The position numbers and the translations under genes are program-made. 64,000 bases of DNA from Pedobacter sp. (GTDB lineage: Bacteria; Desulfobacterota; Desulfuromonadia; Desulfuromonadales; Syntrophotaleaceae), in assembly GCA_050253415.1 (NCBI GenBank), contig JBFWJC010000001.1, positions 512,001 to 576,000 on the forward strand, written 5' to 3'. Under the pieces are notes generated by a model. The model saw nothing but the letters and a program-made list of their open reading frames with translations, had not been told where the DNA came from and searched no databases. Numbering within the stretch: the first letter of the stretch is position 1; the number at the start of each line of letters is the position of its first letter. Below are positions 4,554 through 48,725 of this stretch, in pieces.

Positions 4554-4582
4554 GGTGAATCTCCTTAATCCTATTGCAAAAC

Positions 4583-31588: not shown

Positions 31589-31620
31589 AAAAAAGGGTGC
31601 CCCTTCCGCAAGGGGCACCC
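31589..31620 (-). terminator. Intrinsic terminator
   Basis: aaaaaagggtgcccctt-ccgc-aaggggcaccc. Confidence 0.7.
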
Positions 31621-31739
31621 CGATACGGGAAACGCTCATTTTTAGGCATGGGAGGAATAGAGGCGCTTCCCTGTATAATGCTGATGTTGTGTAACCCTCG
31701 ACTTGTCCGTGTCGAGTAGGTTTTTTCCAGTTATTGTGG

Positions 31740-32117: not shown

Positions 32118-32198
32118 GTCTAATTCTCCTTGTGATTGTTATTTGCTTTGCGTTGGAATATCAAAACGCTACCTTGGCAATGAGGCTAATTTTACGTG

Positions 32199-32861
32199 CT
32201 AAACAAGCAGGTCTTCGTAAAATGCACCAATAGTATTCTCGGAATTGCGGATATGGACTTCTACGATCCAGATATTGGCTGAGGGGTGAAATGCGATTTC
32301 GTGCAAAGGTCCCTCGTAGTGTTCAGCGCTGGAGTAGTCCCCCAAGCGATGACCGCCGAGATCGAGGTTCAGCTCCCACCCAAGATCCTTCGCCATTTTC
32401 TGTGCGAAATCGTACAATTCGACACCGGTCGTTTTATGCATTTTCCACTTTGCCGCAACGGCTTCGAAAATCTTTTTGGCGTCAACCGCGCAACGTTTCA
32501 TTTCCGGATTGCTCCCGGTGACAAATGTGTCGCCTGCGTCGCCTTCATACCCATCCCAGACGGGGGCGATATCAATGAAGAAGATATCATTCTCGCCTAA
32601 ACGAACTCCCGGAACGGAATCAGCGCCAAAGGTGATGGTGGTGTTGCTGCCAAAACGGATGTAAGGCTAGTGAAAAGCTTTCTTTGCCCCCATGTCCAGC
32701 AATGTTTCCACAACCATTTTGTTGGCATCCTCTTCGAGCATCCCAACCTTGACCTGGGCGGCGATCCGCTCAACCGCCTGCTGTGCCCTTGCTCTGATTT
32801 CGAGCATTTTCTCCACTGAAAAGTCGCCCTTGGTCCTTTCAACTACCGCCTTCTCATGCAT
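32199..32861 (-). pseudogene. M24 family metallopeptidase-like gene interrupted by an in-frame TAG
   Basis: One frame over 221 codons, with TAG at 32667-32669 (KAFH*PYIRFG). DIAP..EGDAGDT, GHRL, EVH and YEDLL metal-ligand motifs lie downstream. Confidence 0.8.
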
Positions 32862-33063: not shown

Positions 33064-33768
33064 TTATTTGAGTCTGACTCGGGTGAGAAATTCCCGAGTC
33101 CGTTGCCGGCTCACGGGGAGGAGGCGGTCACTGCCAACCATCTGGAGGCTGACCGTGTTACCGCTCCGCACCACCTTCTGCACCTTTTCAAGGTTGACCA
33201 GGTAACTTCGATGAATGCGGAAAAAGCGCTCTCGGCTCAGCCCCGCCTCCAACACGCCGAGGGACAGGTCGCAGAAGAACTCACCGTCAACGGTTAATAC
33301 CTGAGAATAGATGTTTTCCGCCTTGATAAAAACGATTTCCTCGGGGGCGATCAGTAGAATTTCGCCGCCGGCGCTGACAGGGACTTTGATGAAGCCATGT
33401 TGGGGGGTAGAGATTAACGCAGTGATATCATAGATCAGGCAGCAGTGGAGTGATTTTGCCAGCTTTTGGTCGAGGAGCGGTATCATCTTTAGCATCACAA
33501 AGATTTCGCGGGAGCCACTCATGCGTCTGACAGACATGGATGCCTGGCGGGAAGGGTCGAGTGCCATCGCCACCAACTCCTGTAGTTTCTCGCCGGCCGG
33601 CCCACGGTGCATTTCCAGCAGATTCTGTTCAAGGATTTGCTCGTGCGGCGTTTCGGCAAAGATACGCATCAATGCCCAGTTAATATGGCTCACCTGGAAA
33701 TTGTTGTCGAACAGAATTATCCCCGGTTCCGTGCGCTTCAGCAGGTTTTGTATGTTGTGTTGGTCCAT
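33064..33768 (-). CDS. PAS-like + LytTR one-component transcriptional regulator
   Basis: IVFIKAE, FFRIHRSYLVN and PVSR. N-terminal PAS-like region; no receiver domain. Confidence 0.88.
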   Translation of the reverse strand: MDQHNIQNLLKRTEPGIILFDNNFQVSHINWALMRIFAETPHEQILEQNLLEMHRGPAGEKLQELVAMALDPSRQASMSVRRMSGSREIFVMLKMIPLLDQKLAKSLHCCLIYDITALISTPQHGFIKVPVSAGGEILLIAPEEIVFIKAENIYSQVLTVDGEFFCDLSLGVLEAGLSRERFFRIHRSYLVNLEKVQKVVRSGNTVSLQMVGSDRLLPVSRQRTREFLTRVRLK

Positions 33769-33839
33769 GATGCCTCACAATTCGTGATATCTTGGAAGGT
33801 CCTTGAAATCACGCTGGAAAATTACTTTCGTAGTAAACT

Positions 33840-33933
33840 TAACAGAAACCGGCTGCGTTGGCCAGCGCATTGCCGACGTTTTGCCGTCTCCCCCGGTTTC
33901 CACGTAGTTATACACCGCTCGGCATCTATCCAT
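33840..33933 (-). pseudogene. Second degraded copy of a transposase-like C-terminus
   Basis: Translates to RAVYNYVETGGDGKTSAMR, similar to RVNYNYLKVGADKKTPAKR in the adjacent remnant. Confidence 0.45.
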
Positions 33934-33987
33934 TCCTCGGAAGTTGTTCTGGATAGTGTTGCCTCCGAGCTTTAAGCCTTTCGGGGG

Positions 33988-34401
33988 TCACGTTATTAAC
34001 CCCCTATCTTCATTCGCAGTGTTATTGCTGAAGTTCACGATATCCCCAAGACGGATGTTGCTCTTTGCTAGGCCCAAACGCTTCGCAGGGGTTTTCTTAT
34101 CCGCACCTACCTTTAGGTAATTGTAGTTGACACGATAGATATCGAGAAGCATGGCAGCAATCTCGGGTTTGTAAGGATTTTTCTGATACCATTTTCGGCC
34201 TGTATTGCTGGATGAGCTGGGCGCTCTGGCCAGCAAGGAGATGCTGTTTCTGACCTGTGCAAAAAACCGGTCAATTCCATGCAGACTTGCTTTATCGAAG
34301 AGCGTTGCCAAGTGTTCTTCTTCGTAATCATTAAAGTCAGGTAGGTGGCAAACTTGTTTTTCCGGTTCCCTCTTGATGCGGTTCGGCACCTCAACCCACA
34401 T
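33988..34401 (-). mobile_element. Truncated transposase / insertion-element-like protein (C-terminal part)
   Basis: IDRFF..VR, YNY...KKTPAKRLGLA tail typical of DDE transposases; N-terminus missing. Confidence 0.55.
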
Positions 34402-34420
34402 GCTCTGGCCTTTGCTTCAA

Positions 34421-34932
34421 CCTCCTCCCGACCTTCCTCACTGAAAAATCTGTGATCCAGCGTTGCGTCCACGGAAGTGCTGACGCTGCCGCTGTAGAGA
34501 GTTTTATTCAGGGCTTCGGTATCACGGTTGAGGCGGTCCAGGTCATCGGAGTGCTCCAGATCTCCGATTTGCACATCGCCTTTTCCCAGGGTAGCCAAGA
34601 CCTTGGAGCTGGAATACCCCATGGCGTTACCCAGCGAAAGTGATGACGAATTTACTTTTGGAATCGAATCGGTGACGATTGGTCGGGGATCTTTGGCCGT
34701 TCCAAACCCTATGTTGGTGCCTATATTGAAATGAGTATTTGAGCTATAGGTAGAGTCGGTACTGTTGGCAAAGGTCAGGGTGCCGGTTTCAAGCGTTAAT
34801 TGTTCATTGTCGATAAAGGCACCTTTTCCGTCCATTTGTCCCGCAGCAAGTAATGCGCCTTTTATGTGGGTGTTGCCGCCGACTTCGACATGGACGTTCT
34901 CGCCTGTCAAGGACGTCAGTAGGGTCTGTTTG
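34421..34932 (-). repeat. Orphan duplicate of the tpsA/cdiA pre-toxin region (other copy ~41300-41812)
   Basis: QTLLTSLTGENVHVEVGGNTH...SVSTSVDATLDHRFFSEEGR aligns directly with tpsA at the DNA and protein level. Confidence 0.9.
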
Positions 34933-34986
34933 CCAGTGTGTGGGGTTGGGGAGCAAGTTAACTTGCTCCGACTCCAATTGCCCACC

Positions 34987-35790
34987 TTACCATTTGGGAA
35001 TCTCATATTCCTTATCGTACAACAGCCCTTTTTGTTTCATCATGGGGGCGTTGAAGTGGATGATTTTTAGCGACCGCAACATAAACGCCAGGGACTGTTT
35101 AAACTCCTGCTCGACATCGGCTTGAGACTGTCGAATGCCGAATTTTTCGCCATCGATGACGGTCTCCTCGCTGGAACCCGGATGGTAGAAATAAAAAGCG
35201 CTGCTACGGAAAACCCGCGGGTTTTCCTGCAGGTCATAATAGGCACAATAGGTCTTATAAAACTTTGTGATTCCGCCGGGTAGCCAAGTGCCGCCTACGC
35301 CTCTTGAATAGCTCACGCTGGTGCATTTCATCCCATGCACATAATCAACCCAACATTTGCGGCCGAACGTACGGGTTTCCAGGTCGTTTTCGATCTGCCA
35401 TGCATTGGGCAGTTTTTTCTGGTCCTCTTCCAGTGATGCCAGGGCGGTTGGGTCAAGCATGGTTTCGCCCTTTGGGTTGCGGGACGGGTAGTCGAAAAAA
35501 TCAATATCCAGTTTTGAGTGTGACAAGAACTTTATTACGGATATGTTTGCCACTATATCATGTGCGTAATGATAAGAAAGATCGTATAAATGGGGTTCGC
35601 TAACGGCTTCGTCAACAGCAATAACCGCGTCCTGGAGGACGGTCCAGCCTTTTTGCTCGGGCAGTTGTATGGAAATGGACTTGTCGGCATTCAGGAGGAC
35701 TTCATGGGGGTTTCCTTCCCTGTAGAACGATTTGAGGCTGCAACCCACAACCAATGTCACGGCAAAAATGCCAACGAGGATATATCTCAT
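34987..35790 (-). CDS. Lipoprotein, candidate immunity protein (paralog of 36961-37764)
   Basis: Lipobox LVVGC; ATGA overlap with the upstream toxin-tip ORF. Confidence 0.8.
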   Translation of the reverse strand: MRYILVGIFAVTLVVGCSLKSFYREGNPHEVLLNADKSISIQLPEQKGWTVLQDAVIAVDEAVSEPHLYDLSYHYAHDIVANISVIKFLSHSKLDIDFFDYPSRNPKGETMLDPTALASLEEDQKKLPNAWQIENDLETRTFGRKCWVDYVHGMKCTSVSYSRGVGGTWLPGGITKFYKTYCAYYDLQENPRVFRSSAFYFYHPGSSEETVIDGEKFGIRQSQADVEQEFKQSLAFMLRSLKIIHFNAPMMKQKGLLYDKEYEIPKW

Positions 35791-36341
35791 GGTTTGTCTC
35801 CGCAAACCGCCGGGGGCTTGCATTCGTAGTTGCTGTGCGGGGAGCTGCTTGTCATAAGTTTGTAGAAATTAAAAAGATTGAAGCGATCGATGATGGAAGC
35901 TTGACCATCGAGGCCTTTATTTCCCCCCAGCCCTTCTCCTACAAAATCGTCTTCGTTGGTGAAGGTGGCTGAAAGTTTAATGCCTGCTTTCTTTAATGCT
36001 CTTTGCAGATCTACAACATTGACCGGCGAGCCATAGGCGCTGGCGGTGTGATCTTCAATTGCATACTCAGAGCTCGGCATCGCCCCGGTCTTTTGTAATT
36101 CGGCAATATATTTTGCTCCCGACGTAGCCAAAAGTGCCCCCTGAGAGTGAATGGCAGTATTTGCCCCCTCCTTTCCTCGTGCAGTTTTCACTTCCTCATT
36201 GAATAGGCCTGTTTGCTTTGCCATGCCGGTTGTTCCTCCAAGTTTATCAACGCCACATTCAAGAAGATTGGCAAAAACCCCGTAGGTTGGATTGTAATTG
36301 AGTGTGAATTCTGTGGGTTTGAATTGGCAATGGCCTGCCAA
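35787..36341 (-). pseudogene. Orphan toxin C-terminal module, alpha/beta-hydrolase-like
   Basis: LNYNPT.G, AIHSQGA, AYGSP, DDFVG and SSPH. No TPS body and no convincing start. Confidence 0.6.
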
Positions 36342-36402
36342 AGAGGATTATTTATGCCATTTTATATGCCTTGAAAGGATGCCTTATCTTTAGATATACA
36401 GG

Positions 36403-36870
36403 CTACTTAATCGTATTAAAGCAATTTTCATTGCCATAGAAATATGCTTTTGTATAGTTTGTTTCTGTATTGTGTCTAACGACAACAGATATCCCAGAAG
36501 TTTTATCCAATCTTTTAGAGTTTGGGTCATTGAAAACCCATACTTCATACCATACCGGTGGATCATGCTTTACAATTCTAAATTCCTTCAATGAATCTTT
36601 TTCAAACCCACAGTTAGAGCTAAAAGCTTCAAAAATAGTATCTTTAAACTGATCATGAAATGCGGATTCCCCAACAGTGCCAGCCCAAACAGGGAACTCC
36701 ATGCTGGTTTTGCCATCACCATGATCAGTAAATTTTGTTCTTATTGGAGAGTATTTGGCTTCTTGTTCTGCATTAATTTCTTCAACGTACTTTTTTAAAT
36801 CTGACGTGGTTGAGCAGCCAGATAGTGCAAAAACCGTGAGAAAGCTTGCAATAAATATCAATTTCCTCAT
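36403..36870 (-). CDS. Lipoprotein, candidate immunity protein (paralog of 39291-39725)
   Basis: AGGAGG RBS; lipobox ALSGC; shared VWAG, WYEVW and DKTSG motifs. Confidence 0.8.
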   Translation of the reverse strand: MRKLIFIASFLTVFALSGCSTTSDLKKYVEEINAEQEAKYSPIRTKFTDHGDGKTSMEFPVWAGTVGESAFHDQFKDTIFEAFSSNCGFEKDSLKEFRIVKHDPPVWYEVWVFNDPNSKRLDKTSGISVVVRHNTETNYTKAYFYGNENCFNTIK

Positions 36871-36960
36871 AACGCCTCCTATAACAAAAGCATGGTTATC
36901 AGGGCGGGGGGGCAGTCATGGTTTCGCCGGATTGCGCTCATGCTGAATGTCCGCTCAGAT

Positions 36961-37764
36961 TTACCATTTGGGAATCTCATAGTCCTTGTCGTACAACAGC
37001 CCCTTTTGTTTCATCATGGGGGAGTTGAAGTTTATGATTTTCAGCGACCGCAACATAAACGCCAGGGACTGTTTAAATTCACGCTCGACATCGGCTTGAG
37101 ACAGTCGAATGCCGAATTTTTCGCTATCGATGACAGTCTCCGCGCTGGAGCCCGGATGGTAAAAATAAAAGGCGCTGGCACTAAAAACCCGCGGTTTTGC
37201 CTGCAGGTCGTAATAGGCACAATAGGTATCATAAAATTTTACTTTCCCGCCGGGCAGCCAGGTGCCGCCCTCTCCTCGTGAAAAGCTCACGCTGGTGCAT
37301 TTCATCCCATGGACATAATCAACCCAATATTTGCGGCCGAACGTGCGGGTTTCCAGGTCGTTTTTTATCTGCCACGCATTGGGCAGTTTCTTCTGCTCCT
37401 CTTCCAGAGCCTCCAGGACACCCCTGTCAAGCATGGTTTCGCCGTCTGGTTTACGGGACGGATAATCGTAAAAATCAATACTTATTTTTGATTGCGACAG
37501 ATACCTAGTGATAGATATTCTGGCTATGATGTCCGGCGCATAGCGGTACGCAGGATCGTATAAATAGGGGCGGCTGGGGGCCTCTTCTTCGGCAATCACC
37601 GAATCCTGGAAGATCGTCCAGCTGTTTTGCTCGGGCAGCTGGATGGCGATGGACCGGTCGGAATTCAAAAGGACTTCTTGGGGTTTGCTGTCCCTGTAGA
37701 AATATCTGGTACTGCAACCGGCTACCAATGCCACGGCAAAAATGCCAACGAGGATATATCTCAT
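36961..37764 (-). CDS. Lipoprotein, candidate immunity protein (paralog of 34987-35790)
   Basis: Lipobox LVAGC; preceded by the remnant toxin tail NYECKPPAVCGDKP*. Confidence 0.8.
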   Translation of the reverse strand: MRYILVGIFAVALVAGCSTRYFYRDSKPQEVLLNSDRSIAIQLPEQNSWTIFQDSVIAEEEAPSRPYLYDPAYRYAPDIIARISITRYLSQSKISIDFYDYPSRKPDGETMLDRGVLEALEEEQKKLPNAWQIKNDLETRTFGRKYWVDYVHGMKCTSVSFSRGEGGTWLPGGKVKFYDTYCAYYDLQAKPRVFSASAFYFYHPGSSAETVIDSEKFGIRLSQADVEREFKQSLAFMLRSLKIINFNSPMMKQKGLLYDKDYEIPKW

Positions 37765-37855
37765 GGTTTGTCTCCGCAAACCGCCGGGGGCTTGCACTCG
37801 TAGTTGTGCAAGCTTCTCTGTCGAACCGATATTTCCGATATCATCGCTGGATGGG

Positions 37856-38299
37856 TTATTCTACAAATTCTATAATTGCGCCAACCCTGTTTGCCTCGTT
37901 TCTGAGCGTGTCCGCGTATCGATCCGATAGTGAAACCACGCATAGCCTTATACCCTCCAATATGTTGTCCTCGTAGTGAGAAAAAGTATTGCTGATAAGG
38001 GCGGCTAGTTTTTGGCTGCTTTGGCAGTAGAGAGTAAAATCAGTGTGACCTTGTGAAATCGCGGTTGAAAAATTCTGATAAAATCCTTCATCATTACCGG
38101 TGTTTTTTATCGAGAGGGTCATGAGAGCGTCGCTCGCTATTCCATAGGACGGGATGATCATAACGAGGCCCAGCGCTTTACATGAACATTGCGTTGATTT
38201 TTCGATGACTCCATCAATGCGTAAGGTCGGTTCCGAGCATCCTTGTAGACATACGAACAGGAAGATGAAATAGCTGTACCGTTTGATATTATGTTTCAT
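37856..38299 (-). CDS. Small lipoprotein, candidate immunity protein
   Basis: Lipobox CLQGC. Confidence 0.65.
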   Translation of the reverse strand: MKHNIKRYSYFIFLFVCLQGCSEPTLRIDGVIEKSTQCSCKALGLVMIIPSYGIASDALMTLSIKNTGNDEGFYQNFSTAISQGHTDFTLYCQSSQKLAALISNTFSHYEDNILEGIRLCVVSLSDRYADTLRNEANRVGAIIEFVE

Positions 38300-38399
38300 A
38301 TTATTTCCGCTTAAATAGTGTCACTTTGAGATTTGTGGATGTATCGGGGGGGCATGTACTGCTGTTTGATCAATTGGTGTAATTGTGAGTTGAAAATGC

Positions 38400-39206
38400 C
38401 TATTTTGGTTCGACATCAGATTTACTTTGTTTTGTTGTTAATGATTGATTTAATTTTTTTGTCCAAAAATCAACTTGTTTTTGGTCTTCTATTATTTTAT
38501 ACATTTTAATCAGTTCAATTATTGCTTGTTGGTTGCCAAAATTTGCTGATTTCGTGTACAAATGCATTGCTGCAGGGATATTAACGGGTACACCTTCGCC
38601 ATTTCGATACATTGCCCCTAAATCATAGAGAGCCGGGGGGTAATTTGCTCCCGCTGCTCTTGCAAACCAGTAAAATGCTTTTTTGTAATCCTTTTCAACC
38701 CCGTCACCATTAATATACATAAGACCTAAATAATGTTGGCCCTCAGAAGAATGACCTTCCGCTCCTTTTAAAATAATCGGGTATGCTTCAGAAAATTTCT
38801 GTTCACCTAAAAGTTTGCATGCCGTGTACATTCTAGAATCTATCTCTTTGTCAGACACGGAAAGCCCTGTTAGTAAAAGATCTTTAGAATTTATGTCTTT
38901 TTCCTTTTTAAACGTAGCTACAATTTTTCCACAATCTCTGCAGCCAGAGGAATAATCACCTTTAATCATCAAGCCGATATCAACAAAAGCATTAGGCATG
39001 TTGTAATAATATATATATGAAACATGATCAACGAAGTTCATATGACTTATTGCAGGGTCTCCCAATATGGATACAACATCCGAACGGGTGCTTTTGTTGG
39101 GTGTAAGCGTTTCTGTATTGGGTTTACTGCTGATGTACCCAGGATTCACAAGAGAGCATCCTGAGAGCGAAAAAAAAAGGAACGACAATACAACGAAAAT
39201 TTTCAT
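38400..39206 (-). CDS. Lipoprotein with Sel1-like repeats, candidate immunity protein
   Basis: Lipobox SLSGC; BamE/SmpA-like TRSDVVSILGDP; Sel1 repeats LGLMYINGDGVEKDYKKAFYWF and LGAMYRNGEGV. Confidence 0.82.
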   Translation of the reverse strand: MKIFVVLSFLFFSLSGCSLVNPGYISSKPNTETLTPNKSTRSDVVSILGDPAISHMNFVDHVSYIYYYNMPNAFVDIGLMIKGDYSSGCRDCGKIVATFKKEKDINSKDLLLTGLSVSDKEIDSRMYTACKLLGEQKFSEAYPIILKGAEGHSSEGQHYLGLMYINGDGVEKDYKKAFYWFARAAGANYPPALYDLGAMYRNGEGVPVNIPAAMHLYTKSANFGNQQAIIELIKMYKIIEDQKQVDFWTKKLNQSLTTKQSKSDVEPK

Positions 39207-39290
39207 CACATCTCCCTGTAGATTTATATTTATTTCAGGAATCATGCGGGACACTCCACACAATATGGTGCGAAACGAGAATGCACAAAA

Positions 39291-39725
39291 TCATTCAACG
39301 AAAAAAACGTCCGTAGCGTTTTCTTCAGGGATATAACGCATGATAACTGATCTTCCCGATGTTTTATCGGGACGTATGGACTTTTCATCGCTAAAGATCC
39401 ATACTTCATACCAGATTGGCTTATTGTGACTTACGACTCTCACTTCTTTCAGGTCCGACTTTTTTAATCCACATTTTGTTTCAAAATAATTAAATATAAA
39501 ATCTTGATATTGCTTGTTCGCTACGGTAGTTCCTGGCTGCCCAGCCCAAACACCATAGTCTATGTTTCCGACCCCGCCTGGCTGCTTTGTATAGGCCACA
39601 CGCACAGGCCTCCCTGCCCTTTCCAGATCCTTGTTTTGAGTCGCGACAATAGCATCTATTTCATTTTTTAAGGCACAACCCGATAGAGTACAAAATAAAA
39701 TAAGAAAAATGACTATTTTTTTCAT
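39291..39725 (-). CDS. Lipoprotein, candidate immunity protein (paralog of 36403-36870)
   Basis: GGGAG RBS; lipobox TLSGC. Confidence 0.8.
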   Translation of the reverse strand: MKKIVIFLILFCTLSGCALKNEIDAIVATQNKDLERAGRPVRVAYTKQPGGVGNIDYGVWAGQPGTTVANKQYQDFIFNYFETKCGLKKSDLKEVRVVSHNKPIWYEVWIFSDEKSIRPDKTSGRSVIMRYIPEENATDVFFVE

Positions 39726-39838
39726 TGAAACTCCCTAAGATTTAGAGAAATCGCATGTGGAAAACAGCCGGATTGGACCGCGGGCTGGCTACCCATGGTT
39801 TTTGCTGACGAACCTACTGCTTTTTTAGCCCCACTTCT

Positions 39839-40372
39839 TCAACGGTGCACCTTGATCTGCCTACCTTCCAAGGTCCTAAATTCGGCTACAGCTTCATCCT
39901 CCCATGGCGCTCTTGTGATTTTTTTAATATCATCCCAATAATACATAAAATCAGCACCATCTTTTAAAGTATTGACATATATCTTCCCATAAACGACCAG
40001 AACCGTTGGGCCGTTATATATTTTTTCAAGCCGAACTCTTTGTATTTTCACATTGGCTCCACCCTTAATAACGCTTATATCACTGCTTTTTGTATAGCGG
40101 TTCACTTCTATTGATTTCGCAAAACTTTTACTGTTTAAATCCTCCAGAATATAGTAACTAATCAAATGCTCTTTAATTATACCAACATCCCTAAGCAAGA
40201 CATGGTCAGACTCAAAATAGCCCTCGAATAAATCACAGTCACTTACATCCATCTCATATTGCCTATTTGTGATAGAGCACCCACAAAGCACAATCGACAA
40301 GAACAAAATAAATAGTGATTTGTTAAAAATACCGGCGCACAAACGCCTAATATCATTTTTCAAGAAAATCAT
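39839..40372 (-). CDS. Lipoprotein, candidate cognate immunity protein (CdiI position)
   Basis: Overlaps the tpsA 3' end; AGGAG RBS; lipobox VLCGC. Confidence 0.75.
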   Translation of the reverse strand: MIFLKNDIRRLCAGIFNKSLFILFLSIVLCGCSITNRQYEMDVSDCDLFEGYFESDHVLLRDVGIIKEHLISYYILEDLNSKSFAKSIEVNRYTKSSDISVIKGGANVKIQRVRLEKIYNGPTVLVVYGKIYVNTLKDGADFMYYWDDIKKITRAPWEDEAVAEFRTLEGRQIKVHR

Positions 40373-43300
40373 AAGTAATCCTCCTATATTCGTTCCCTAT
40401 CTCAAGGCTATATGCATCAAGGTTTTTGGGATTACCCAATTGTCTGTGTGCGTCACCGAGAATCGTACCCCCAAATCCTTTTCTCCCTTCGCCAAAGTAC
40501 ATATGGTCATTATTTCCTGTCGACCAATATCCAAATGATAAAAGAGCGCCGAGGTTGCTCGTTGGTTCTTGCAGGCCAACTGAATACGTTGCTTGCAAAG
40601 AGTCAATGTTATTATACAAACCAAAACCTGGACCTTGATCAGCAGCCAATTTTTTTACGCCAATGCCGTAAATCGCAGTATAGTTACTCGCCAGGGAAGC
40701 TCGTGAAACACCACCACTATGCGAATACATTAGCACCGTACTATTTTCAGGAGTGCCACTAACTACATAATCTGCCATCTCCAGTCCTCTGCTTTTATAC
40801 CCGAGAAAGAGCGACATTGCGACACGAGTAGCTGAATCCCCGACATTCGACGCGTAGTTATAATCAGAGCCATTAATATTTAAAGCGCCTTCTGTGTACG
40901 CATCACGTTTAATTGAAATTTTTTCAGAATTTGCATTTATGCCGCCCGTGATCCATCTTGTGACTTCGCCATCCATATTCCCTTTAACGCTTGGCACAAA
41001 GTTCCCAATCAGCGGCACCTCTTGCCCAAGCATAAGCGAAGAAGCCGCCAGATCTGCTTTTCTTGAAAAACTCCATCTCCTCTCAAATCCTTTAGCCGGA
41101 ACTTCGATATGTTTTGCCATATAATCAAGCAAGGTTTCAAAGTCGTGAAAGACAGAAAGACGTTCAACCACCAATAATGGCAATGATGCTACAGAGAGCA
41201 CCATATCCTTGGCCCCACCCGCAGCTGTGATGGCTACATCAACCGTGCCGTCCAGCATTATTTCCCCTTCCTCCAAGGCAATTTCGTACTCCTGGGCGAT
41301 TTCTCCCCGCCCCTCTTCACTGAGCAGCCGATGATCCAGCGTTGCGTCCACGGAAGTGCTGACGCTGCCGCTGTAGAGATTTTTATTCAGGGCCTCGGTA
41401 TCACGGTTGAGACGGTCCAGGTCATCGGAGTACTCCAGATTTCCGATTTGCACATCGCCTTTTCCCAGGGTGGCCAAGACTTTGGAGCTGGAATACCCCA
41501 TGTCGTTACCCAGCGAAAGGGTTGACGAATTTACCTTGGGGGTGGTCTCGTTGGTGTCCGGTTGGGGGTCCTTGGTGGAGCCGAACCCGATGTTGGTGCC
41601 TGCGTTGAAACTATTGCTTGAGCTGTAGCTGGAGTTCGTACTGTTGCCGAAGGTGAGGGTCTCGGTTTTGAAGGCCAAGTTTTCATTATCGATGAAGATT
41701 CCCTCTTCGTTTACTTCTCCGGCCGCGAGCAAGGCTCCTTTCAGGTGGGTGTTGCCGCCGACTTCGACATGGACATTTTCACCGGTCAAGGAAGTCAGGA
41801 CCGTTTGCTTGACCTGGGTTGTGCCGGCGCTGGCGCCGAAGCTGGCGCCGACACTTCCCAACCCGTCACCCACTCTGGCGCCGATGGCTTGGTTCAATTT
41901 ACCCTGGGCCGCTTTATGCTCTTGTTCATTGGCATAATCCCCCCTGTCGGCGGTGTATTCTTGATCATTGCCCAAAGAGAAACTTGCTCCAACATTAAAC
42001 CCTTTCGAGTTCGAGGAAGAGCTGTCCCGCAGGGAGATGATGTCCAGATCGTTTCCTACCTCCAGATTGAGGGTGTCGTCTGCCCGTACCGTAGCTCCTT
42101 CGAACAGGGCATCGTTGGCGACGGTGAGGTTGATATTCTTGGCCAGAAGTTCCGAGTTGGTGTGCGAGGTGCTCTCCTGGCTGGCGTGATTTCCCCCGTA
42201 GCCCATACTGCCGGCCATGCCGCTGCCACCGCCGTACATGGTCATGGAAAGACTGCCGGAAAGGTCTTTGGAGTCCTGTTTGGCCTGGTATGTATCTGTG
42301 GAAGCGCTGACATTTAAATCGTGTGTGGCTATCTCCAGATTGTCTTTAGCGGCAAGGGTCGCGCCGCGGATAGCAACCTGGGTGCTCTCGAGGGGGTTGG
42401 TGGTGATCGTGATGTCCTTGCCGGTGATGATTGCGTTGAGGCTTCGGGTCGTGTCCGCGCGGCTATTTGTTTTAGAGCCGTGGAGATCAAGCGCCAGTCC
42501 CGCTGAAAAGCCCCAGGTGTATGAACTGGAGGCCGCGGTGGCGACTTGCGTCGCGATGGCAACCGTCTTGCTGGCAAGATCCGCTGTTGCCGCCGCGACG
42601 GCAGCGACATAATATTTCTCGTTGTCGCTGACATGGTCGATCAACTCTTCCAGGTCTTCAATGTCCTCGTAGTCAACTCCTGCTTCTTTGTTCCGGTATG
42701 CCTTCTTGGTATCCGAGAGGGCGGATTGGAGGGAGCTCAACTGGTCCTTGAATTGCAAGTAATCGTCTTTTACCTGCAGGAGTTGTTTTGCGGCTTCTGC
42801 GGCGGCTTTCACGGCACTTCCTATTTCCACGTATTCGTTTTGTACGGTGAGGCTTATTTCCGCGCTGGCATGTTTGTCTTTACTGTTCTCCGAGAAGGTG
42901 TCTATGGCTTCCTTGATGGTCACATCGCCGGTTTGGGCCAGGAGCTCGACGCTTTTCCCCGCGGCCACCGTAGAACCTTCAATGAGGATGTTTTGGTGCG
43001 CATTCAGGAGAATATCGCCATCTTCTCCGGTCAGGTTTGAACTTTTGTGCGTGAGTGCCTGGCTGGAGTGGTCCGTATCGTCATAGGTCGCATTTGCGAG
43101 TGCTATTTTCAGTTGGGTCTCGCCCTGTTTTGGAGTAAACGCTTTTGTTGCATCCATAATGTTGGCGAGACTTACTTCCATTTTCCTTGTCGAGCTATGG
43201 GAATCCCTTTTTTCTTCGGCAGAGAGGATGTTTATGTCGCCTGTGCTGGTTGTGGCGCGAAGGGTGTTTTGGGCGGTAAGGTCTGAGCCTATGACCGTAG

Positions 43301-46300
43301 CGTTGGGGGCCTCCAGCACGATGTCGTTGCCACTGTTCAGGGTTGAGGATTTCGCTTTAATATCGGTCGTTTGGTCTTTATGGTACTCCATTTCGTAGAT
43401 GGGGCCTGTGTTGAGCATACCCATTGTTGCCAGCGAGGTGATCAAGTTGCCGAGATTGAAACTGCTTTTTTTGCTCCATTGCTCATCCTGCCGCAATTCT
43501 TGTGCCGCGGCGATAAGGATGTCGTTGGCAGCCTGGAGGTGAAGATCAGACGCGGCATCAACATTGGAGCCGATGATGCGGATGTCGTTGCCGGATTTGA
43601 GGATGATGTTCAGCGCTTCGGTTCTGAGCTCGGCTTCTTTGACATTGAGAGCGTCGGTTCTTTTTAATTGCGCACTTTGGCTTAGCCCACCCCATGAGGA
43701 TTTGGTGGTGGTGTGCAGGGAGCCCTCCCGGTACTGCTTGGCCAGAACGTTGATGTCTTTTTTGGCATCGAGAACAATGTTTTCTCCGGCTATGAGGTTG
43801 GCCGATTCAAGGGTGATGCCTTCGTTTTGGGCTTGGATGAGAATGTTGCGCGCTTGGAGGTTGCTTTGCACTACGCTTTCCTGGTGGCTCATGTCTCTTT
43901 CAATTTCTCCCCCTAAAAAGCCATCATCCAATTCTATCTGGGTGTCCTGGTGGGTAAGGTCGTTTGCAGCCAGGATCGAGATTCCCTGCGTTGCCTGCAA
44001 GGCGATGGTTTCCCCGGCATTGAGAGATGAGGCCGTGATGTCGATTTGGTTGGCTGCAATGGCGATGTTTTTGCCTTCCAGGGAAGAAACCGCGTTAGTC
44101 AGGGACCCGCCTCTGTTGTAGCCATTGGCAAGGTCAAAGTCATACTCCTCATTGAGTTCAAGTGCGTTAATTCGGACATCCCCTTCGTGGGAAGCGAGCA
44201 ACAGGGTTTCACCGGAGTGCGCAGTCGTGTTGGACAGGGTGATGTTGTCGGGCGCTTCCATGGTGAGGTTTCCACCTGCGATGAAGCGGGTTTCGTTTCC
44301 TTTGAGTGTAGATGTTTGGGAGCCCCTGGCATAATTGTAGATTTTTTCTTCGGTTATGGCGCTGCCGGTGATGGTGTTTGCCACGAGACGCATGTCCCCT
44401 CCCGAGGCGATGGTTCCGCTGAGGTTTTGAAGCTCACCGCCGACCAGAAGGTTCATCGCGTTTTCTGAAACAAGAGCGCCGTTTTTGTTGGTGAGTTTAT
44501 CGGCGGTGATGTCCATCCGCGAGCGGGCGACAATGGTCCCCTCATTTAACAGGGTTTCCTCCACGTTGAGGTCGATTGTGTTGGCTGCTATTTGTGGCCC
44601 GTAGGTGGCGATGTTATTTGCTGCCAGGTAAAGTTGCGGCACGAGCACTTTTTCGCCGTCAACGATGCGGTCTTCCAACCAGACAATGTTTTTATCCAAC
44701 TGCGCGACTTGTTCTTTGGTAAGGGTGATGCCAAAAGCAAGTTGCAGCTTTTCTTGAAGTGCCAACGCGTTGTCCATGAGCCCTTTGTACTGTTCCAGGT
44801 CGGATGCGTATCCTTCGAGATAGCGTTTACCGCTTTGTGCGATGACGCTGTTGCGGACAAAGTCGGTTTCATACATCCCATCGCCCAGGCGTTTGATGAT
44901 AGTCTCCGGGCGATGGTTGAGTTTTTCAAGCATGTAATCAGAGCTGATAAAGGTCTTGTAATTGGTGAAAAGCGGATTGGCTTCGATGAGATATGGATGG
45001 TTACTGGCTTTATTGAGTAGAAAAAGACCGAAGTTCCCCTTGGGGAGGGTGAGGTTGTCGATGATGATATCACCATTGGATGTATGTTGAATATCAGGAG
45101 ACTGCAGCAGGGCATGGTGCGTGTCGGTTTGGTACAAACCTTCTGCGCCGGTATTATTGAGGGTGATGACATTACCGGTGATGCTTTGTCTGGCCTGAAT
45201 CCCATGCCCCGGCAGGGGTGTTTTTTGTGTGTCGGTAGAGGTAAAGGTTCCTCTATAGCCTGCCCGATGTTTATGATTTACACATGCGCCAAAGACACGA
45301 CTGGAACAATATCTTTCCTTTCGATATTTTTTGGTTACTGTGGTGATTGTGTCAACCAGGATATTGCCTACATTGTTGGCAATATTGGCGTATAAATCGA
45401 TATCCTCATCGGCTGCAATGAGCGAATAGTGATTGTCGAGTGTGTCCAGGTCTATGCTGATATCGCCAGCAGCTAAAATGAGTGCGGGATCCGATGGAAC
45501 CGCCACGACCTGTTGTTGCGTTGTTGTTGTGACCACATCATAATCATACTTGCCTCCTCGTGAGATTTTCTGTGTTTTGGTGGAAGTCAATTGTTTCATG
45601 GTTGGCGCATCGGCGATGTTGCTGAGTGTTTTGGCTGTGATGCCTATATTGCCCCCGGATTGCATCAGCCCGAGGTTGGTGACATGGTTTATTTTATCGT
45701 TTGCACGATTGGCGGCTATGGTTAAGTCGCAGTCACTGTCGATGACACCCTCCTTTTGGTTGGTCAGGGTGTCTTCCACCAACAGGCTGATGGCGTTGTT
45801 GCTACGGATCACGCCTGTGTTGTCAAGGTTTCGGGCGGAGATTTCAAGATTGTTTATTGAATACAGAGCCCCCGTGTTATCGATATCCGTGGCGAAGATG
45901 GCAAGATCTGCTCCTCCGATGAGCCCTTGGTTGTTGAGTTTTTGGGCAACACTGACGGTGTTGCTGCCCGTTTCTTCCAGTGCCGTGAGTTCGCCTTTGT
46001 TATCAAGGAATTCTGCAAAAACTTGTAGGGAATGCGTGGCAGAGGTAACGGCGATTTCCGCCATGGAAATGTTTTTTTGCGCCGAGATGGTTACGTCGTT
46101 GGCAGTGATGTCGTTGGTGAGTTGAATACCTGCATTATGAGAATAGACCTCCAGATGTGAACCTGCGACGGCTTTTGAGAGGACGATGTCTCCATCGGCT
46201 GTTAATGCAAAGGAATTTTGAGCAAACACTTCAGGTGGCAGGTGAACGCCGATGCCTTTGTCGCTGCTATGAAGGGTGATCGTGTTGGCGTAGATGCCTC

Positions 46301-47024
46301 CAAGTAATGAAGAGTCGATGGCCATACCGGTTCCCGCTCGGTTTTTATCAGAGATGGCACCATCCAGGGCGATGGTGTTTTCTCCAGCAACGACATTGAG
46401 TTTATCCGCGTACAGTTTGGCATTGAGTTGTAAAGCTTTGGCATAGAGATTTACTCTTGCGATGTTGTTGGCATTGAATCCATCCCCCTCGATCACAATA
46501 TCTCCGCTGCTCACATCAAATCCCTGCAACATGGTTCCGTTCATGATGGGTGAGCCTGTGGTGAGAGTGGCGCTTGGGGTGTTGATGAATCCTCCACCGT
46601 TGACGCTGATGCCGTTAGGGTTGGCGATGATAACATCGGCGGGTTTTCCAGCGACTTCGGTGTAGCCTTGCAGGAGTGTTTTGCTCGTGCCTGTAACTTC
46701 GTTCAAGATCAGCCGTGCTTGCTTGACGGAGAGGTTGGGATTGTAGGGAATGTAGCCGGCGAGTTGCGTGTTGGCTATGACATTGGCATTGTTGAGAATC
46801 AGCCCTTGTTTTTGGACATTGTAGGTGTTGAATTTATTGTGAGAGATCCCCTGGGCATTGGGGGTTGTGATATTGACGACAGGTACGCCATTGGGGGCTT
46901 GTCCAAGATAGGCCTGGTTGGCTTTTGATGCAGAGGTATCTACCTGAATTTCAGCTGCTGAGAGGGTTTGACTGAAAATCAAAAGCAAACTCAGGGTAAG
47001 GCAGATGGTTCGATTTCCTTTCAT
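40353..47024 (-). CDS. TpsA / CdiA-like filamentous hemagglutinin family exoprotein with C-terminal hydrolase-like toxin domain
   Basis: Signal peptide; TPS domain (NPNL, ILNEV, ANPNGI); FHA repeats; YLIE.NP...SSDY...RLGDG.YE segment; variable C-terminus containing YSHSGG. Confidence 0.9.
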   Translation of the reverse strand: MKGNRTICLTLSLLLIFSQTLSAAEIQVDTSASKANQAYLGQAPNGVPVVNITTPNAQGISHNKFNTYNVQKQGLILNNANVIANTQLAGYIPYNPNLSVKQARLILNEVTGTSKTLLQGYTEVAGKPADVIIANPNGISVNGGGFINTPSATLTTGSPIMNGTMLQGFDVSSGDIVIEGDGFNANNIARVNLYAKALQLNAKLYADKLNVVAGENTIALDGAISDKNRAGTGMAIDSSLLGGIYANTITLHSSDKGIGVHLPPEVFAQNSFALTADGDIVLSKAVAGSHLEVYSHNAGIQLTNDITANDVTISAQKNISMAEIAVTSATHSLQVFAEFLDNKGELTALEETGSNTVSVAQKLNNQGLIGGADLAIFATDIDNTGALYSINNLEISARNLDNTGVIRSNNAISLLVEDTLTNQKEGVIDSDCDLTIAANRANDKINHVTNLGLMQSGGNIGITAKTLSNIADAPTMKQLTSTKTQKISRGGKYDYDVVTTTTQQQVVAVPSDPALILAAGDISIDLDTLDNHYSLIAADEDIDLYANIANNVGNILVDTITTVTKKYRKERYCSSRVFGACVNHKHRAGYRGTFTSTDTQKTPLPGHGIQARQSITGNVITLNNTGAEGLYQTDTHHALLQSPDIQHTSNGDIIIDNLTLPKGNFGLFLLNKASNHPYLIEANPLFTNYKTFISSDYMLEKLNHRPETIIKRLGDGMYETDFVRNSVIAQSGKRYLEGYASDLEQYKGLMDNALALQEKLQLAFGITLTKEQVAQLDKNIVWLEDRIVDGEKVLVPQLYLAANNIATYGPQIAANTIDLNVEETLLNEGTIVARSRMDITADKLTNKNGALVSENAMNLLVGGELQNLSGTIASGGDMRLVANTITGSAITEEKIYNYARGSQTSTLKGNETRFIAGGNLTMEAPDNITLSNTTAHSGETLLLASHEGDVRINALELNEEYDFDLANGYNRGGSLTNAVSSLEGKNIAIAANQIDITASSLNAGETIALQATQGISILAANDLTHQDTQIELDDGFLGGEIERDMSHQESVVQSNLQARNILIQAQNEGITLESANLIAGENIVLDAKKDINVLAKQYREGSLHTTTKSSWGGLSQSAQLKRTDALNVKEAELRTEALNIILKSGNDIRIIGSNVDAASDLHLQAANDILIAAAQELRQDEQWSKKSSFNLGNLITSLATMGMLNTGPIYEMEYHKDQTTDIKAKSSTLNSGNDIVLEAPNATVIGSDLTAQNTLRATTSTGDINILSAEEKRDSHSSTRKMEVSLANIMDATKAFTPKQGETQLKIALANATYDDTDHSSQALTHKSSNLTGEDGDILLNAHQNILIEGSTVAAGKSVELLAQTGDVTIKEAIDTFSENSKDKHASAEISLTVQNEYVEIGSAVKAAAEAAKQLLQVKDDYLQFKDQLSSLQSALSDTKKAYRNKEAGVDYEDIEDLEELIDHVSDNEKYYVAAVAAATADLASKTVAIATQVATAASSSYTWGFSAGLALDLHGSKTNSRADTTRSLNAIITGKDITITTNPLESTQVAIRGATLAAKDNLEIATHDLNVSASTDTYQAKQDSKDLSGSLSMTMYGGGSGMAGSMGYGGNHASQESTSHTNSELLAKNINLTVANDALFEGATVRADDTLNLEVGNDLDIISLRDSSSSNSKGFNVGASFSLGNDQEYTADRGDYANEQEHKAAQGKLNQAIGARVGDGLGSVGASFGASAGTTQVKQTVLTSLTGENVHVEVGGNTHLKGALLAAGEVNEEGIFIDNENLAFKTETLTFGNSTNSSYSSSNSFNAGTNIGFGSTKDPQPDTNETTPKVNSSTLSLGNDMGYSSSKVLATLGKGDVQIGNLEYSDDLDRLNRDTEALNKNLYSGSVSTSVDATLDHRLLSEEGRGEIAQEYEIALEEGEIMLDGTVDVAITAAGGAKDMVLSVASLPLLVVERLSVFHDFETLLDYMAKHIEVPAKGFERRWSFSRKADLAASSLMLGQEVPLIGNFVPSVKGNMDGEVTRWITGGINANSEKISIKRDAYTEGALNINGSDYNYASNVGDSATRVAMSLFLGYKSRGLEMADYVVSGTPENSTVLMYSHSGGVSRASLASNYTAIYGIGVKKLAADQGPGFGLYNNIDSLQATYSVGLQEPTSNLGALLSFGYWSTGNNDHMYFGEGRKGFGGTILGDAHRQLGNPKNLDAYSLEIGNEYRRITYDFLEK

Positions 47025-47093
47025 ACTATTTCCTTTATGAAAGAAGCTTTGTTTAGGTTGATAACAGCAGAGGCGGCGGAGAGATGCCGCATG

Positions 47094-48725
47094 TTAAAAC
47101 CGGTAATTTACCCAAAACCCAAGGAAGTTTTGAGTGGCACTGACGTCCTTTTTGTACAGCGGCATTGCATAGTAGATAGCAAGGTCAACAGCATCCGCTG
47201 TAAGCTTGATCCCGATGGTATCGCTTAAAAGGGTTCCACCCTTTGAATCTTCTTCTTTTTTGATCCTTCCTCCATCCAAGGCAACAAAACAGGTCGGGAA
47301 AAAAACGCCTGCAAACCTGTGACTGGATGTGTAGGAAGCCTCGTTTCGGACATAGAAGCCACTGTTTCCGTTCAATCCTTCCTTCGCATAGCCCCTTACG
47401 CTGTATGGACCGCCGATGCTGATTTGATTGGTGCTGAAGAGACGATCCTCGGAGTGCTGATAATGTGCGTCGAGGGTGTATTGAAAGGCTGCGATTCGTT
47501 TTGCGAGGGAGAGGTCAACCGTACAAAGTGAATATTTTTCATCGAGGTTTGTTGGATTGTGTGCGTTAAACCAATCAACTCCCTGGGTGTATTGCAGTTC
47601 AAGAAATGCGTAAAACCCAACCGTTTGATAGAGATAATCCAGCCTAGCCCCAGTTTTTGAAAGGGTATAGCTGGACGTTTCTATGAGGGTGTCACTTATG
47701 AAATTGCTGCTTTTGTACCGAGAGACGAAGGAGCCAAGGTTTATTCGATTGTGTTGATCATGGTAGAGTTTATAGGCCAGATCCAGAGTGAATGTGTAGG
47801 TGCTTCCGTGGGATTTATAGATTGAAATGCCTGCAGGAATGTCTTGTTCGTACTTTGTTTTGTTGTAACTTAGCGTGGTTAATAATCGTCTGATGGGGAA
47901 GGAGTACGCGTAGGAATCGCCTGTAGAATTTTCACCATCGAAGTGTTTGTTGGTACTATTGAGATGAATGGATAGCTGATCGTTAATTTTCAGGGGATTA
48001 TCCAGAAACAGTCTAAGCGTTCCTTGAAATTTTCCTGTGTTATGTGTACCGAAATTATTTAGTCCCAAGATGCCGTGAATTCGGCGTGATGGTTGATTTT
48101 GGATAGTGACGTGTGTTTGTCCCACCTCGGATCCTGGCGCAAGTTCCATCGTTGCATGATTGCTTGGCAGTCGGTTGATTGTTTCGATGGATCTTTCAAG
48201 GTCTCGGAGATTTAAATGGCGGTTATTTTGTCCCCAAAAAGCGCTGTTTATGTAGAGTTTGTCAGGAGTGATGCTTTCGATATTGCCCTCAACGGCATGA
48301 AGTGTAACCTCTCCGTGGACGATGTTTTGCGGTTTGAGATACACTTGTGAGGTAATGTACCCTTTTTCGATGTAGAGTGCGGTAAATTGGCGTGCCAAGT
48401 TAGACAAATCTGTGAGTGTATTGCAACGCCCGATGTAGGCATCAAATAGGGCTTTTTTTTCTTTCTGAGAGAGAAGAGTAATGGTGGTTTCATGGATGGA
48501 CTTTATTTCAAAGCACTGTTCGTCTTGGCTGGGCAGTAAAACAGGTTTGTCAACATCCACATAGGGAATGGTTTCATGGCGATGTTGTTCCAGTCGCTCA
48601 AACACCTCTTTTTGTCTTTTAAGCTGCTCGGTTTTTTGAATGACGTCTAGTGCCTCGTCCGAAAATACCGGGCCAGGCACGAGCAAAAGCAAAAAAAGGG
48701 ATAAGGCACTTAGCCTTGTATACAT
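47094..48725 (-). CDS. TpsB / ShlB-FhaC-HecB family outer-membrane transporter
   Basis: POTRA (YIEKGYITS...VEG, LNLRDLE), IGGPYSVRGY motif, C-terminal Phe. Confidence 0.92.
   Translation of the reverse strand: MYTRLSALSLFLLLLVPGPVFSDEALDVIQKTEQLKRQKEVFERLEQHRHETIPYVDVDKPVLLPSQDEQCFEIKSIHETTITLLSQKEKKALFDAYIGRCNTLTDLSNLARQFTALYIEKGYITSQVYLKPQNIVHGEVTLHAVEGNIESITPDKLYINSAFWGQNNRHLNLRDLERSIETINRLPSNHATMELAPGSEVGQTHVTIQNQPSRRIHGILGLNNFGTHNTGKFQGTLRLFLDNPLKINDQLSIHLNSTNKHFDGENSTGDSYAYSFPIRRLLTTLSYNKTKYEQDIPAGISIYKSHGSTYTFTLDLAYKLYHDQHNRINLGSFVSRYKSSNFISDTLIETSSYTLSKTGARLDYLYQTVGFYAFLELQYTQGVDWFNAHNPTNLDEKYSLCTVDLSLAKRIAAFQYTLDAHYQHSEDRLFSTNQISIGGPYSVRGYAKEGLNGNSGFYVRNEASYTSSHRFAGVFFPTCFVALDGGRIKKEEDSKGGTLLSDTIGIKLTADAVDLAIYYAMPLYKKDVSATQNFLGFWVNYRF

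Follow-up and report, generated by a model that had tools for sequence, protein, structure and literature searches.

Does the region between positions 33,840 and 48,725 of a 64,000-nucleotide stretch of bacterial DNA (assembly GCA_050253415.1, filed as Pedobacter sp.; contig JBFWJC010000001.1, positions 512,001 to 576,000 of the forward strand) encode a weapon of the contact-dependent growth inhibition (CDI) type, and if so, what does its toxin attack and which genes protect the producer? The whole stretch is called the window in the following. The initial annotation had listed for this region a two-partner secretion (TPS) gene pair tpsB-tpsA, seven co-oriented genes with a lipobox, an orphan toxin tip, a toxin-tail remnant and a duplicated pre-toxin handle. 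All these parts are present; they lie on the minus strand, to which the coordinates of the locus refer. We regard it as probable that the locus is a CDI-type TPS system on an imported island, in which the exoprotein TpsA carries an α/β-hydrolase tip (CT1), the lipoprotein I1 protects the producer, and I5 and I7 belong to spare modules.

The genes of the carrier are adjacent and co-oriented, with a gap of 69 nucleotides (nt) between them. TpsB (47094-48725) is an Omp85-type transporter of 543 amino acids (aa), with Pfam matches to ShlB (1.2e-73; ShlB/FhaC), POTRA_2 (4.2e-21) and POTRA_3 (2.9e-12). The gene tpsA (40353-47024) encodes an exoprotein of 2223 aa, which consists of a signal peptide (recognized by eye), the TPS domain (Pfam TPS, 4.4e-46, residues 25-281), haemagglutinin repeats (Fil_haemagg_2, 7.2e-48 in four stretches, the best one spanning residues 1517-1675), the pre-toxin handle and the tip CT1. 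The pair therefore possesses the features of two-partner (type Vb) secretion, namely an Omp85 barrel with POTRA domains in TpsB and an N-terminal TPS domain behind a signal peptide in TpsA. The handle (41301-41840, about residues 1729-1908) ends with LNRD-x20-LDHRLLSEEGR and is the putative recombination point for tip exchange. A scan of 29 relatives detected the underlying motif pair, LN[RT][DE] and LDxR[LF][LF][ST]xxG[RQ] with starts 24 residues apart, in nine of them.

Two relatives allow the exchange of tips to be traced. A search with the orphan tip recovered P0003, a metagenomic protein of 1989 aa, whose tip belongs to the orphan-tip family and is 84% identical to the fragment in the window. 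In 40-residue segments, P0003 and TpsA are 80-100% identical from residue ~235 to residue ~1908, with two lower segments (47% and 62%) near residues 1669-1748; from there on, identity is 10-23%. The reverse case is locus L016, where the body is more diverged (50-95%) and the CT1 tip is retained at 75-97%; its CT1 as such is 87% identical to that of the window. An invariant C-terminus of TpsA, which the initial annotation had named as a refutation, is thus not what the homologs show; the tip is exchanged at the handle. In agreement with the earlier proposal of a polymorphic TPS toxin, P0003 shares the body of TpsA but not its tip, and L016 shares the tip on a diverged body. Judged from these alignments, the C-terminus of TpsA is polymorphic and swapped behind a conserved handle; CDI exoproteins have a C-terminal toxin that varies while the body is conserved and that is swapped among close homologs, and P0003 provides the example.

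What kind of toxin is CT1? The query was the last 325 residues of TpsA, and a HMMER search over 1.84 billion cluster representatives yielded 24 of them at E ≤ 0.001, 16 at ≤ 1e-10 and 5 at ≤ 1e-30. An alignment of 18 sequences was made from the CT1 of the window and 17 of the 24 representatives; seven fragments of 91-204 aa were left out. The nucleophile elbow reads SHSGG in CT1, and H-S-G-G is invariant in all 18 sequences. The columns of a putative catalytic triad are equally well conserved: the serine and the acidic residue (Asp or Glu; Glu255 in CT1) occur in 18/18 and the histidine (His295) in 17/18 sequences. Three of the 18 members carry RHS_repeat, two Fil_haemagg_2 and one TPS; as the family rides on Rhs carriers too, it looks like a portable toxin module. 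Searches of CT1 against Pfam, NCBIfam, PADLOC and the sequences of the PDB gave no match.

The AlphaFold model of CT1 has a mean predicted local distance difference test (pLDDT) score of 89.6 and a predicted template modelling (pTM) score of 0.87. Residues 1-110 form long helices (5-48, 50-60, 67-91, 94-103), and residues 121-325 an α/β core; the corresponding stretches of tpsA are 40971-41330 (helical part, query residues 1-120) and 40356-40970 (core). In the helical part, the block-mean pLDDT is 83 for residues 21-30 and 91-98 for residues 31-120. Ser205 is placed between a strand (198-204) and a helix (206-221), and the putative triad Ser205/Glu255/His295 corresponds to TpsA residues 2103, 2153 and 2193. 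Structural comparison with VIA-align gave 341 chains at Z ≥ 8. The top 50 rows are all α/β hydrolases (Z 10.9-13.7), among them the lipase Lip_vut1 (6nkc_B; Z 13.7, root mean square deviation (rmsd) 2.8, 157 aligned residues). A second VIA comparison ranked the thioesterase TesA (6fw5_A) at Z 14.0 and Bacillus subtilis LipA (1i6w_A) at Z 13.6 (rmsd 2.7, 156/179 residues). Based on the model, the assignment of CT1 to the α/β-hydrolase fold is firm. CT1 is thus modeled as a Ser-Asp/Glu-His α/β hydrolase of the minimal lipase/esterase type with ~110 helical residues in front.

The second toxin family is represented by the orphan tip (about 35787-36347), a frame of 184 codons located between I6 and I7, which opens right after an in-frame stop. 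Its ~185 aa share 83-84% identity with the C-terminal ends of P0002 and P0003 and align from residue ~216 of P0002 onward, i. e. with the C-terminal half only of the full-length relatives. The orphan tip is therefore real, though truncated at its N-terminus; lacking the handle as well as the N-terminal part and the opening strands of the fold, it cannot work alone. Like CT1, it had no match in Pfam, NCBIfam, PADLOC or the PDB sequences. A profile search for the family gave 36 proteins, and 29 of them together with the fragment of the window constitute an alignment of 30 sequences; six short fragments and a protein with a TpsB annotation were excluded. The named members come from Sulfurimonas, Arcobacteraceae, Campylobacterales, Vibrio and Mariprofundaceae. 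Ser275 (in HSQG) is conserved in 30/30, Asp346 and His383 each in 27/30 sequences; at His383, the other three have gaps. The model of P0002 is of moderate quality (pLDDT 75.3) with a disordered handle part. VIA-align superposed it on the hydrolase domain of Obc1 (5ikz_A) with Z 11.5, on two cutinases (9.4 and 9.2) and on a venom phospholipase A1 (8.5); an acetylxylan esterase is also among its matches.

Both families thus model as α/β hydrolases with a conserved serine at the nucleophile elbow, which bears out two statements of the initial annotation, namely that the tips are of the hydrolase type and that both carry an HSxG motif (SHSGG in CT1, HSQG in the orphan family). The defining features of the fold class, taken here as a serine at a strand-turn-helix elbow plus a conserved acid and histidine, are seen in the models and in the conserved columns. 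Membership of the two tips in one family was considered and rejected: BLASTP gave E 1.3 and hhalign a probability of 0.3%, with the elbow alone aligned, and the two tip families are therefore treated as separate. The Pfam models of Tle1-4 (such as DUF2235 for Tle1) matched none of the 18 CT1-family and none of the 30 orphan-family sequences at E ≤ 0.1; DUF676 matched three of the latter 30 weakly (best E 0.03).

We now turn to the genes that follow the toxins. I1 (39839-40372, 177 aa) overlaps the tpsA stop by 20 nt and is the candidate cognate immunity gene of CT1. It is followed by I2 (39291-39725, 144 aa), I3 (38400-39206), I4 (37856-38299, 147 aa), I5 (36961-37764, 267 aa), I6 (36403-36870, 155 aa) and, behind the orphan tip, I7 (34987-35790, 267 aa), the presumed cognate partner of that tip, with which it shares an ATGA stop/start overlap. 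Each of the seven co-oriented genes has a hydrophobic N-terminus ending in a cysteine, the last residues being LCGC (I1), LSGC (I2, I3, I6), LQGC (I4, behind a signal peptide), VAGC (I5) and VVGC (I7). Lipoprotein status was predicted with a rule of the PROSITE PS51257 type, and six of the seven open reading frames (ORFs) show a signal peptide and lipobox with Cys at +1 that pass it. In the same genome, 116 of 3316 greedy ORFs of at least 100 aa do so (3.5%). I2 and I6 are paralogs (39% identity, E 6e-40), and I5 and I7 are 77% identical at the amino acid level. I3 contains Sel1 repeats (Pfam Sel1, 2.2e-19 in two stretches; BamE with 1.5e-4 is below the cut-off). For I1, I2 and I4-I7, searches of Pfam, NCBIfam, PADLOC and the PDB sequences gave no match. 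In the ESM Atlas, I1 hits unnamed clusters only; I7 hits clusters named 'Lipoprotein', most commonly from Campylobacterota, and DUF769 at 0.92, which are to be read as leads only.

For the orphan-tip family, linkage could be followed in 15 foreign loci from species genomes. A homolog of I5/I7 (E 1e-8 to 1e-18) overlaps or abuts the stop of the toxin gene in ten of them (L001-5, L007-9, L012, L013). Two loci (L010, L011) stop at the toxin; of the 13 that extend further downstream, 12 continue with an ORF whose signal peptide ends in Cys. The remaining one, L015, has a weak partial toxin match followed by a signal peptide without lipobox. In L006 and L014 a different ORF of the lipoprotein type follows the toxin; its assignment to the I5/I7 family could not be demonstrated, as hhalign gave 1.2% in one case and, in the other, 55.6% confined to the region of the signal peptide. 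The I5/I7 family comprises 13 aligned members. For the 11 loci in which toxin and partner distances were compared, the Mantel correlation is 0.918, a value reached by none of 5000 permutations, and the partners are less conserved (20-30% identity) than the toxins (42-50%). Because linked genes share their history, this correlation indicates co-inheritance and faster change of the partners, not binding.

For CT1, linkage is seen in L016, where an I1 homolog (84% identical) follows with the same 20-nt overlap; the further order is I2 (83%), an I5-like gene, another lipoprotein gene and an I4-like gene (54% identity). An immunity gene directly downstream of the toxin and varying with it, as expected for CDI, is thus indicated by linkage for both tips (I1 in L016; I5/I7 in 10/15 loci, r 0.918). 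A Rhs-borne relative of CT1 in L017 is followed by an unrelated ORF of 204 aa with a signal peptide ending in LLSFGC, and the next Rhs tip by an ORF of 99 aa. This metagenomic locus (L017:4491-10356) is an array of repeated genes for 452-aa Rhs tips, whose N-terminal parts are near-identical.

How could these components cooperate? TpsB would export TpsA, as is known for the family. By analogy with CdiA, the C-terminal part of TpsA would cross the outer membrane of a target cell on contact. The tip would then stay in the periplasm of the target and hydrolyze an ester-linked component of the envelope, most likely a membrane phospholipid; we infer this site and this chemistry from the fold and the lipoprotein partners. 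I1, anchored in the outer membrane and facing the periplasm, would block CT1 in the producer and its kin, presumably by binding it; the protective role is suggested by gene linkage. The spare I5 and I7 may protect against neighbours armed with the other, orphan-family tip, and the spare handle and the decayed modules could serve as substrates for tip exchange by recombination.

Several observations weigh against this reading. With respect to CDI membership, neither TpsA nor the spare handle has a Pfam match to PT-VENN at E ≤ 0.01, and therefore the locus departs from E. coli-type CDI in that feature; of the CDI pre-toxin signatures, neither VENN/PT-VENN nor Nx(E/Q)LYN occurs, the motif being LNRD...NKNLYS...LDHRLLSEEGR. 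With respect to the partners, the predicted lipoprotein status of I1-I7 follows from a pattern rule that I4 (LQGC) fails, solely by its Cys at -4 (its homologs in L001, L008 and L016 read FQAC and LQGC), and the linkage of I1 and CT1 is seen in one close relative only. With respect to the tips, the canonical GxSxG motif is found neither in CT1 (S-H-S-G-G) nor in the orphan family (x-H-S-Q-G). In the elbow of Bacillus LipA, A-H-S-M-G, a small residue stands in place of the first glycine. In a Foldseek comparison of both models, a check that had been suggested, the CT1 rows are all α/β hydrolases, but no PDB match reached E ≤ 0.001 (best values 2.9e-3 for CT1 and 1e-2 for the orphan-family model), and only four chains reach Z 8 with the orphan model. 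Finally, thioesterases (TesA, acyl-protein thioesterases) and feruloyl and carboxyl esterases score as high as lipases among the structural matches of CT1. The modeled fold alone does not fix the substrate of CT1, and the substrate call is not firm.

The last point leads to an alternative with the same delivery and a target other than membrane lipids, such as the acyl groups carried by lipoproteins or by lipid A, the O-acetyl groups or peptide bonds in peptidoglycan, or an intermediate with a thioester. The mixture of thioesterases and esterases with lipases among the CT1 matches fits this alternative, as do Obc1, the cutinases and the acetylxylan esterase on the side of the orphan family; moreover, the available text of Zhang et al. 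2012 leaves the substrate of Tox-ABhydrolase-2 open (PMC3482391). However, the nearest small enzymes that match the core along its full length are genuine lipases, namely LipA and Lip_vut1 in the case of CT1 and phospholipase A1 (Z 8.5) in that of the orphan family, and the type VI precedent for a periplasmic α/β-hydrolase toxin with lipoprotein immunity is a phospholipase. We consider a target of this kind unlikely, and a phospholipid remains the preferred target.

A second question concerns the number of immunity genes, as the initial annotation had interpreted all seven lipoprotein genes as an immunity array. That lipoprotein genes are conserved partners of such toxins elsewhere speaks for this interpretation; it does not hold equally for all members. 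In L012, L013 and L016, the I2/I6 homolog comes second behind the toxin gene. Homologs of I4 (E 3.5e-20 in L001, 5.6e-23 in L008) occur as second or third gene behind an I5/I7-type gene in L001, L008 and L016, and I3 has no homolog in any relative locus compared. Hence I2/I6 and I4 may be accessory. Accordingly, it is conceivable, though short of an even chance, that immunity is conferred solely by the gene which immediately follows each toxin (I1, I5/I7) and that I2/I6, I4 and possibly I3 are lipoproteins with an accessory or unrelated role, much like BcpO, a predicted outer-membrane lipoprotein which, according to the accessible text of the source, is needed for full CDI (PMC3415462). The similarity of I2/I6 to BcpO is one of gene position and description, and the absence of a toxin gene in front of I4 and I3 fits orphan immunity genes left behind by deletion as well. 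A third I2/I6 paralog exists in the same genome (C3:106527-107000, 38-41% identity); its context is housekeeping-like with no toxin gene nearby, and the family may therefore have a general role in the envelope.

A third alternative denies that the locus is an interbacterial weapon: TpsA would be a secreted cytolysin, exolipase or adhesin directed at non-bacterial targets or serving nutrient release, and the lipoproteins would shield the producer. TPS systems do export haemolysins and adhesins too. On the other hand, the tip is swapped between near-identical TpsA bodies, orphan modules and a spare handle lie behind the main gene, the same tips occur on Rhs carriers, and the partners co-diverge with the toxins at a faster pace. 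These are marks of polymorphic toxin-immunity systems, and the third alternative is highly improbable.

The modules downstream of I4 shed light on the history of the locus. An alignment of the DNA upstream of I5 and I7 shows that the ~44 nt in front of I5 (37765-37808) are the last codons of an orphan-family tip with the same ATGA stop/start overlap; this is the toxin-tail remnant reported earlier. The duplicated handle is a direct repeat (34427-34726 versus 41306-41605) with 85% identity over 300 nt; at the protein level, the copies are 78% identical over 171 residues. Both repeats, that of the toxin tail and that of the handle, are long and specific. The second copy (34404-34961), located after I7 as the head of an orphan module, comprises the last ~180 residues of the TpsA body and breaks off after ...LDHRFFSEEGREEVEAKA. 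Next to it lies the distal edge of the island, a frame of 137 codons (33988-34401), which is what remains of the C-terminal portion of a transposase. It shares 48% identity with the C-terminal fragment of another, broken transposase, related to those of insertion sequences and located on contig C5 of the same genome. That transposase (C5:67251-70625, L024) has a zinc-finger-like N-terminus and is split over three frames. As far as the frames can be read, the downstream modules (tail relic with I5, truncated tip with I7, spare handle) are partly decayed.

Two further observations were made on such modules. In L008 (positions 4553-5376; Sulfurospirillaceae), the toxin and three lipoprotein genes precede a spare handle (…LDHRLLTEDGRK), to which a short tip of another kind is fused, an orphan-module layout which is the same as that of the window. 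Contigs of three other metagenomes (X2-X4) contain joints within 33800-42500: the two handle copies are joined in X2 (41473 to 34593), and I5 is joined to I7 in X2 and X4. Such joints agree with recombination at these repeats. However, they come from single contigs of low depth, which may be natural recombinants or assembly chimeras, and are too thin and too prone to assembly artefacts to serve as evidence.

The host can be placed by a housekeeping protein of the window, which shares 85% identity with its counterpart in Syntrophotalea carbinolica and 77-79% with proteins of S. acetylenivorans, Trichloromonas and Desulfuromonas; these values identify the genome as a Syntrophotalea-like member of the Desulfuromonadales. 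In 60 relatives from genus, family and order, the tpsA handle query found only one match (E 4.2e-4 over 83 residues) and none that is convincing, which is consistent with the earlier remark that little CDI characterization is known for this lineage. The GC content of CT1 and I1-I4 is 38-41%, that of the tpsA body 52-56%. The drop in GC, the lack of a convincing handle match and the abundance of Campylobacterota among the relatives of the modules together point to an imported island. A second copy of either tip, I1, I3, I4 or I5/I7 was looked for in the same genome and not found, and a scan of the locus for promoters and terminators gave counts no higher than in shuffled sequences.

If imported, the locus could be decaying and no longer functional. 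The truncated distal modules, which end at the transposase remnant, and the single poor handle match in the 60 relatives agree with such a fate. However, tpsB, tpsA, I1 and I2 are intact open frames, and the same block occurs in L016 at 83-87% protein identity. Loss of function of the whole system is therefore improbable; a CDI-type system with partly decayed spare modules remains our preferred explanation.

The genes flanking the locus are ordinary: a LytTR/PAS regulator (Pfam) at 33064-33768 on one side and, on the other, a plus-strand frame (48982-49926) that reads by eye as an S-adenosylmethionine (SAM)-dependent methyltransferase. Elsewhere in the window, the gene for a radical SAM/SPASM protein (494 aa) stands ahead of five small ORFs (85-125 aa each) without Pfam match (29245-32501, minus strand), which could be a peptide-maturation cluster. 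At 56981-58492 (minus strand), one protein of 503 aa combines a 5'-3' exonuclease (N and C domains) with an RNase H domain, a fusion common to relatives from the Desulfuromonadales.

Is this a new system? Among type VI effectors, Tle1-4 are GxSxG α/β hydrolases, and the Tli proteins are periplasmic or lipoproteins. According to the available parts of the sources, Tle phospholipases pair with Tli immunity proteins (10.1101/2023.03.28.534661, PMC13133936). The locus shares with these pairs the combination of a serine α/β-hydrolase toxin with an exported or lipid-anchored immunity protein; in addition, a Sel1-repeat lipoprotein (I3) occurs in the array and the CT1 family is also found on Rhs proteins. 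It differs in its TPS delivery and in its tips, which match no Pfam family; Tle3 (8boz), the sole Tle structure in the match lists, superposes on the orphan model with only Z 6.3. The best whole-domain match of the CT1 core is B. subtilis LipA (1i6w), a 'minimal α/β hydrolase', with which it shares a small core without lid; identity is 12-14%, however, and CT1 possesses ~110 extra helical residues and ends an exoprotein of 2223 aa.

With cdiBAI of E. coli, as described in the accessible portions of two publications (PMC3415462, PMC9086364), the locus has in common the order B-A-I, the TpsB/TpsA pair and the long conserved exoprotein, as well as a variable tip of ~315 aa behind a conserved motif, a small gene that overlaps the toxin gene at its end and orphan tip/immunity modules downstream. 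In contrast, VENN/PT-VENN is absent, the boundary being LNRD-x20-LDxRLL(S/T)xxGR, and the tips are α/β hydrolases with lipoprotein partners. The 2022 review on CDI effectors names as characterized CdiA tips nucleases and one pore former, paired with CdiI, and its available text contains the words 'lipase', 'phospholipase' and 'hydrolase' zero times (PMC9086364). With bcpAIOB of Burkholderia, as covered by the accessible text of PMC3415462, the similarities are a handle stretch LNKNLYSGS (NxxLY), which recalls Nx(E/Q)LYN, and a small lipoprotein gene (I2/I6) behind the immunity position, as is bcpO. Here, the order is B-A-I instead of A-I-O-B, the motif ends with another residue, and divergence sets in ~28 residues further on.

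The closest prediction is that of Zhang et al. 2012, who described in silico Tox-ABhydrolase-1/2/3 as tips of polymorphic toxins that may attack membranes (PMC3482391). In the consulted part of that work, the partners listed are SUKH, Imm66 and Imm69, and Imm65 is called the only lipoprotein immunity protein of the collection. The likeness thus lies in α/β-hydrolase tips on classical polymorphic toxins, and the difference in the partners, which are lipoproteins here; the CT1 and orphan families were compared with Tox-ABhydrolase-1/2/3 by description only. In the literature searched, the name Tox-ABhydrolase-2/3 turned up in a single paper. Our literature search found no paper on an α/β-hydrolase CdiA tip with lipoprotein immunity, with the proviso that subscription journals were mostly outside its coverage and such work may exist. 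The notion of a new system, put forward by the initial annotation, goes too far: the architecture is the known one of CDI and polymorphic toxins, and as α/β-hydrolase tips had been anticipated by the 2012 prediction and the Tle/Tli scheme is familiar from type VI systems, the locus is a variant of a known weapon and not a new kind of system. What is new is the putative toxin chemistry for the TPS route, and the families of toxins and protectors are still undescribed.

A more far-reaching interpretation is offered tentatively, as we give it less than an even chance. The locus may stand for an uncharacterized CDI-type branch of TPS systems that kills from the periplasm by means of two unmodelled α/β-hydrolase families, with outer-membrane lipoproteins as partners and perhaps a two-part immunity or a BcpO-like helper. 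According to the accepted model for CdiA, the producer keeps the C-terminal half in its own periplasm until use. A hydrolase tip kept there would already be active; this would account for the fact that all partners are predicted lipoproteins of the outer membrane and that the modules contain two or three lipoprotein genes, an I5/I7-type gene plus genes of the I2/I6 or I4 type. The CT1 family of this putative branch is rare (24 among 1.84 billion) and shared with Rhs proteins; the orphan family extends across Campylobacterota, Vibrio and relatives.

The locus adds two new putative enzyme families and at least one new candidate immunity family (I5/I7), which are easy to test in E. coli, and its handle motif and spare modules make it a clear case of tip swapping across phyla. 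According to the available text of the 2022 review, the characterized CDI toxins are almost all nucleases, which must cross both membranes of the target (PMC9086364). If the interpretation is true, an esterase or lipase that is delivered by TPS and goes no further than the periplasm would take a simpler route of delivery and would be the counterpart of the Tle/Tli pairs of type VI secretion.

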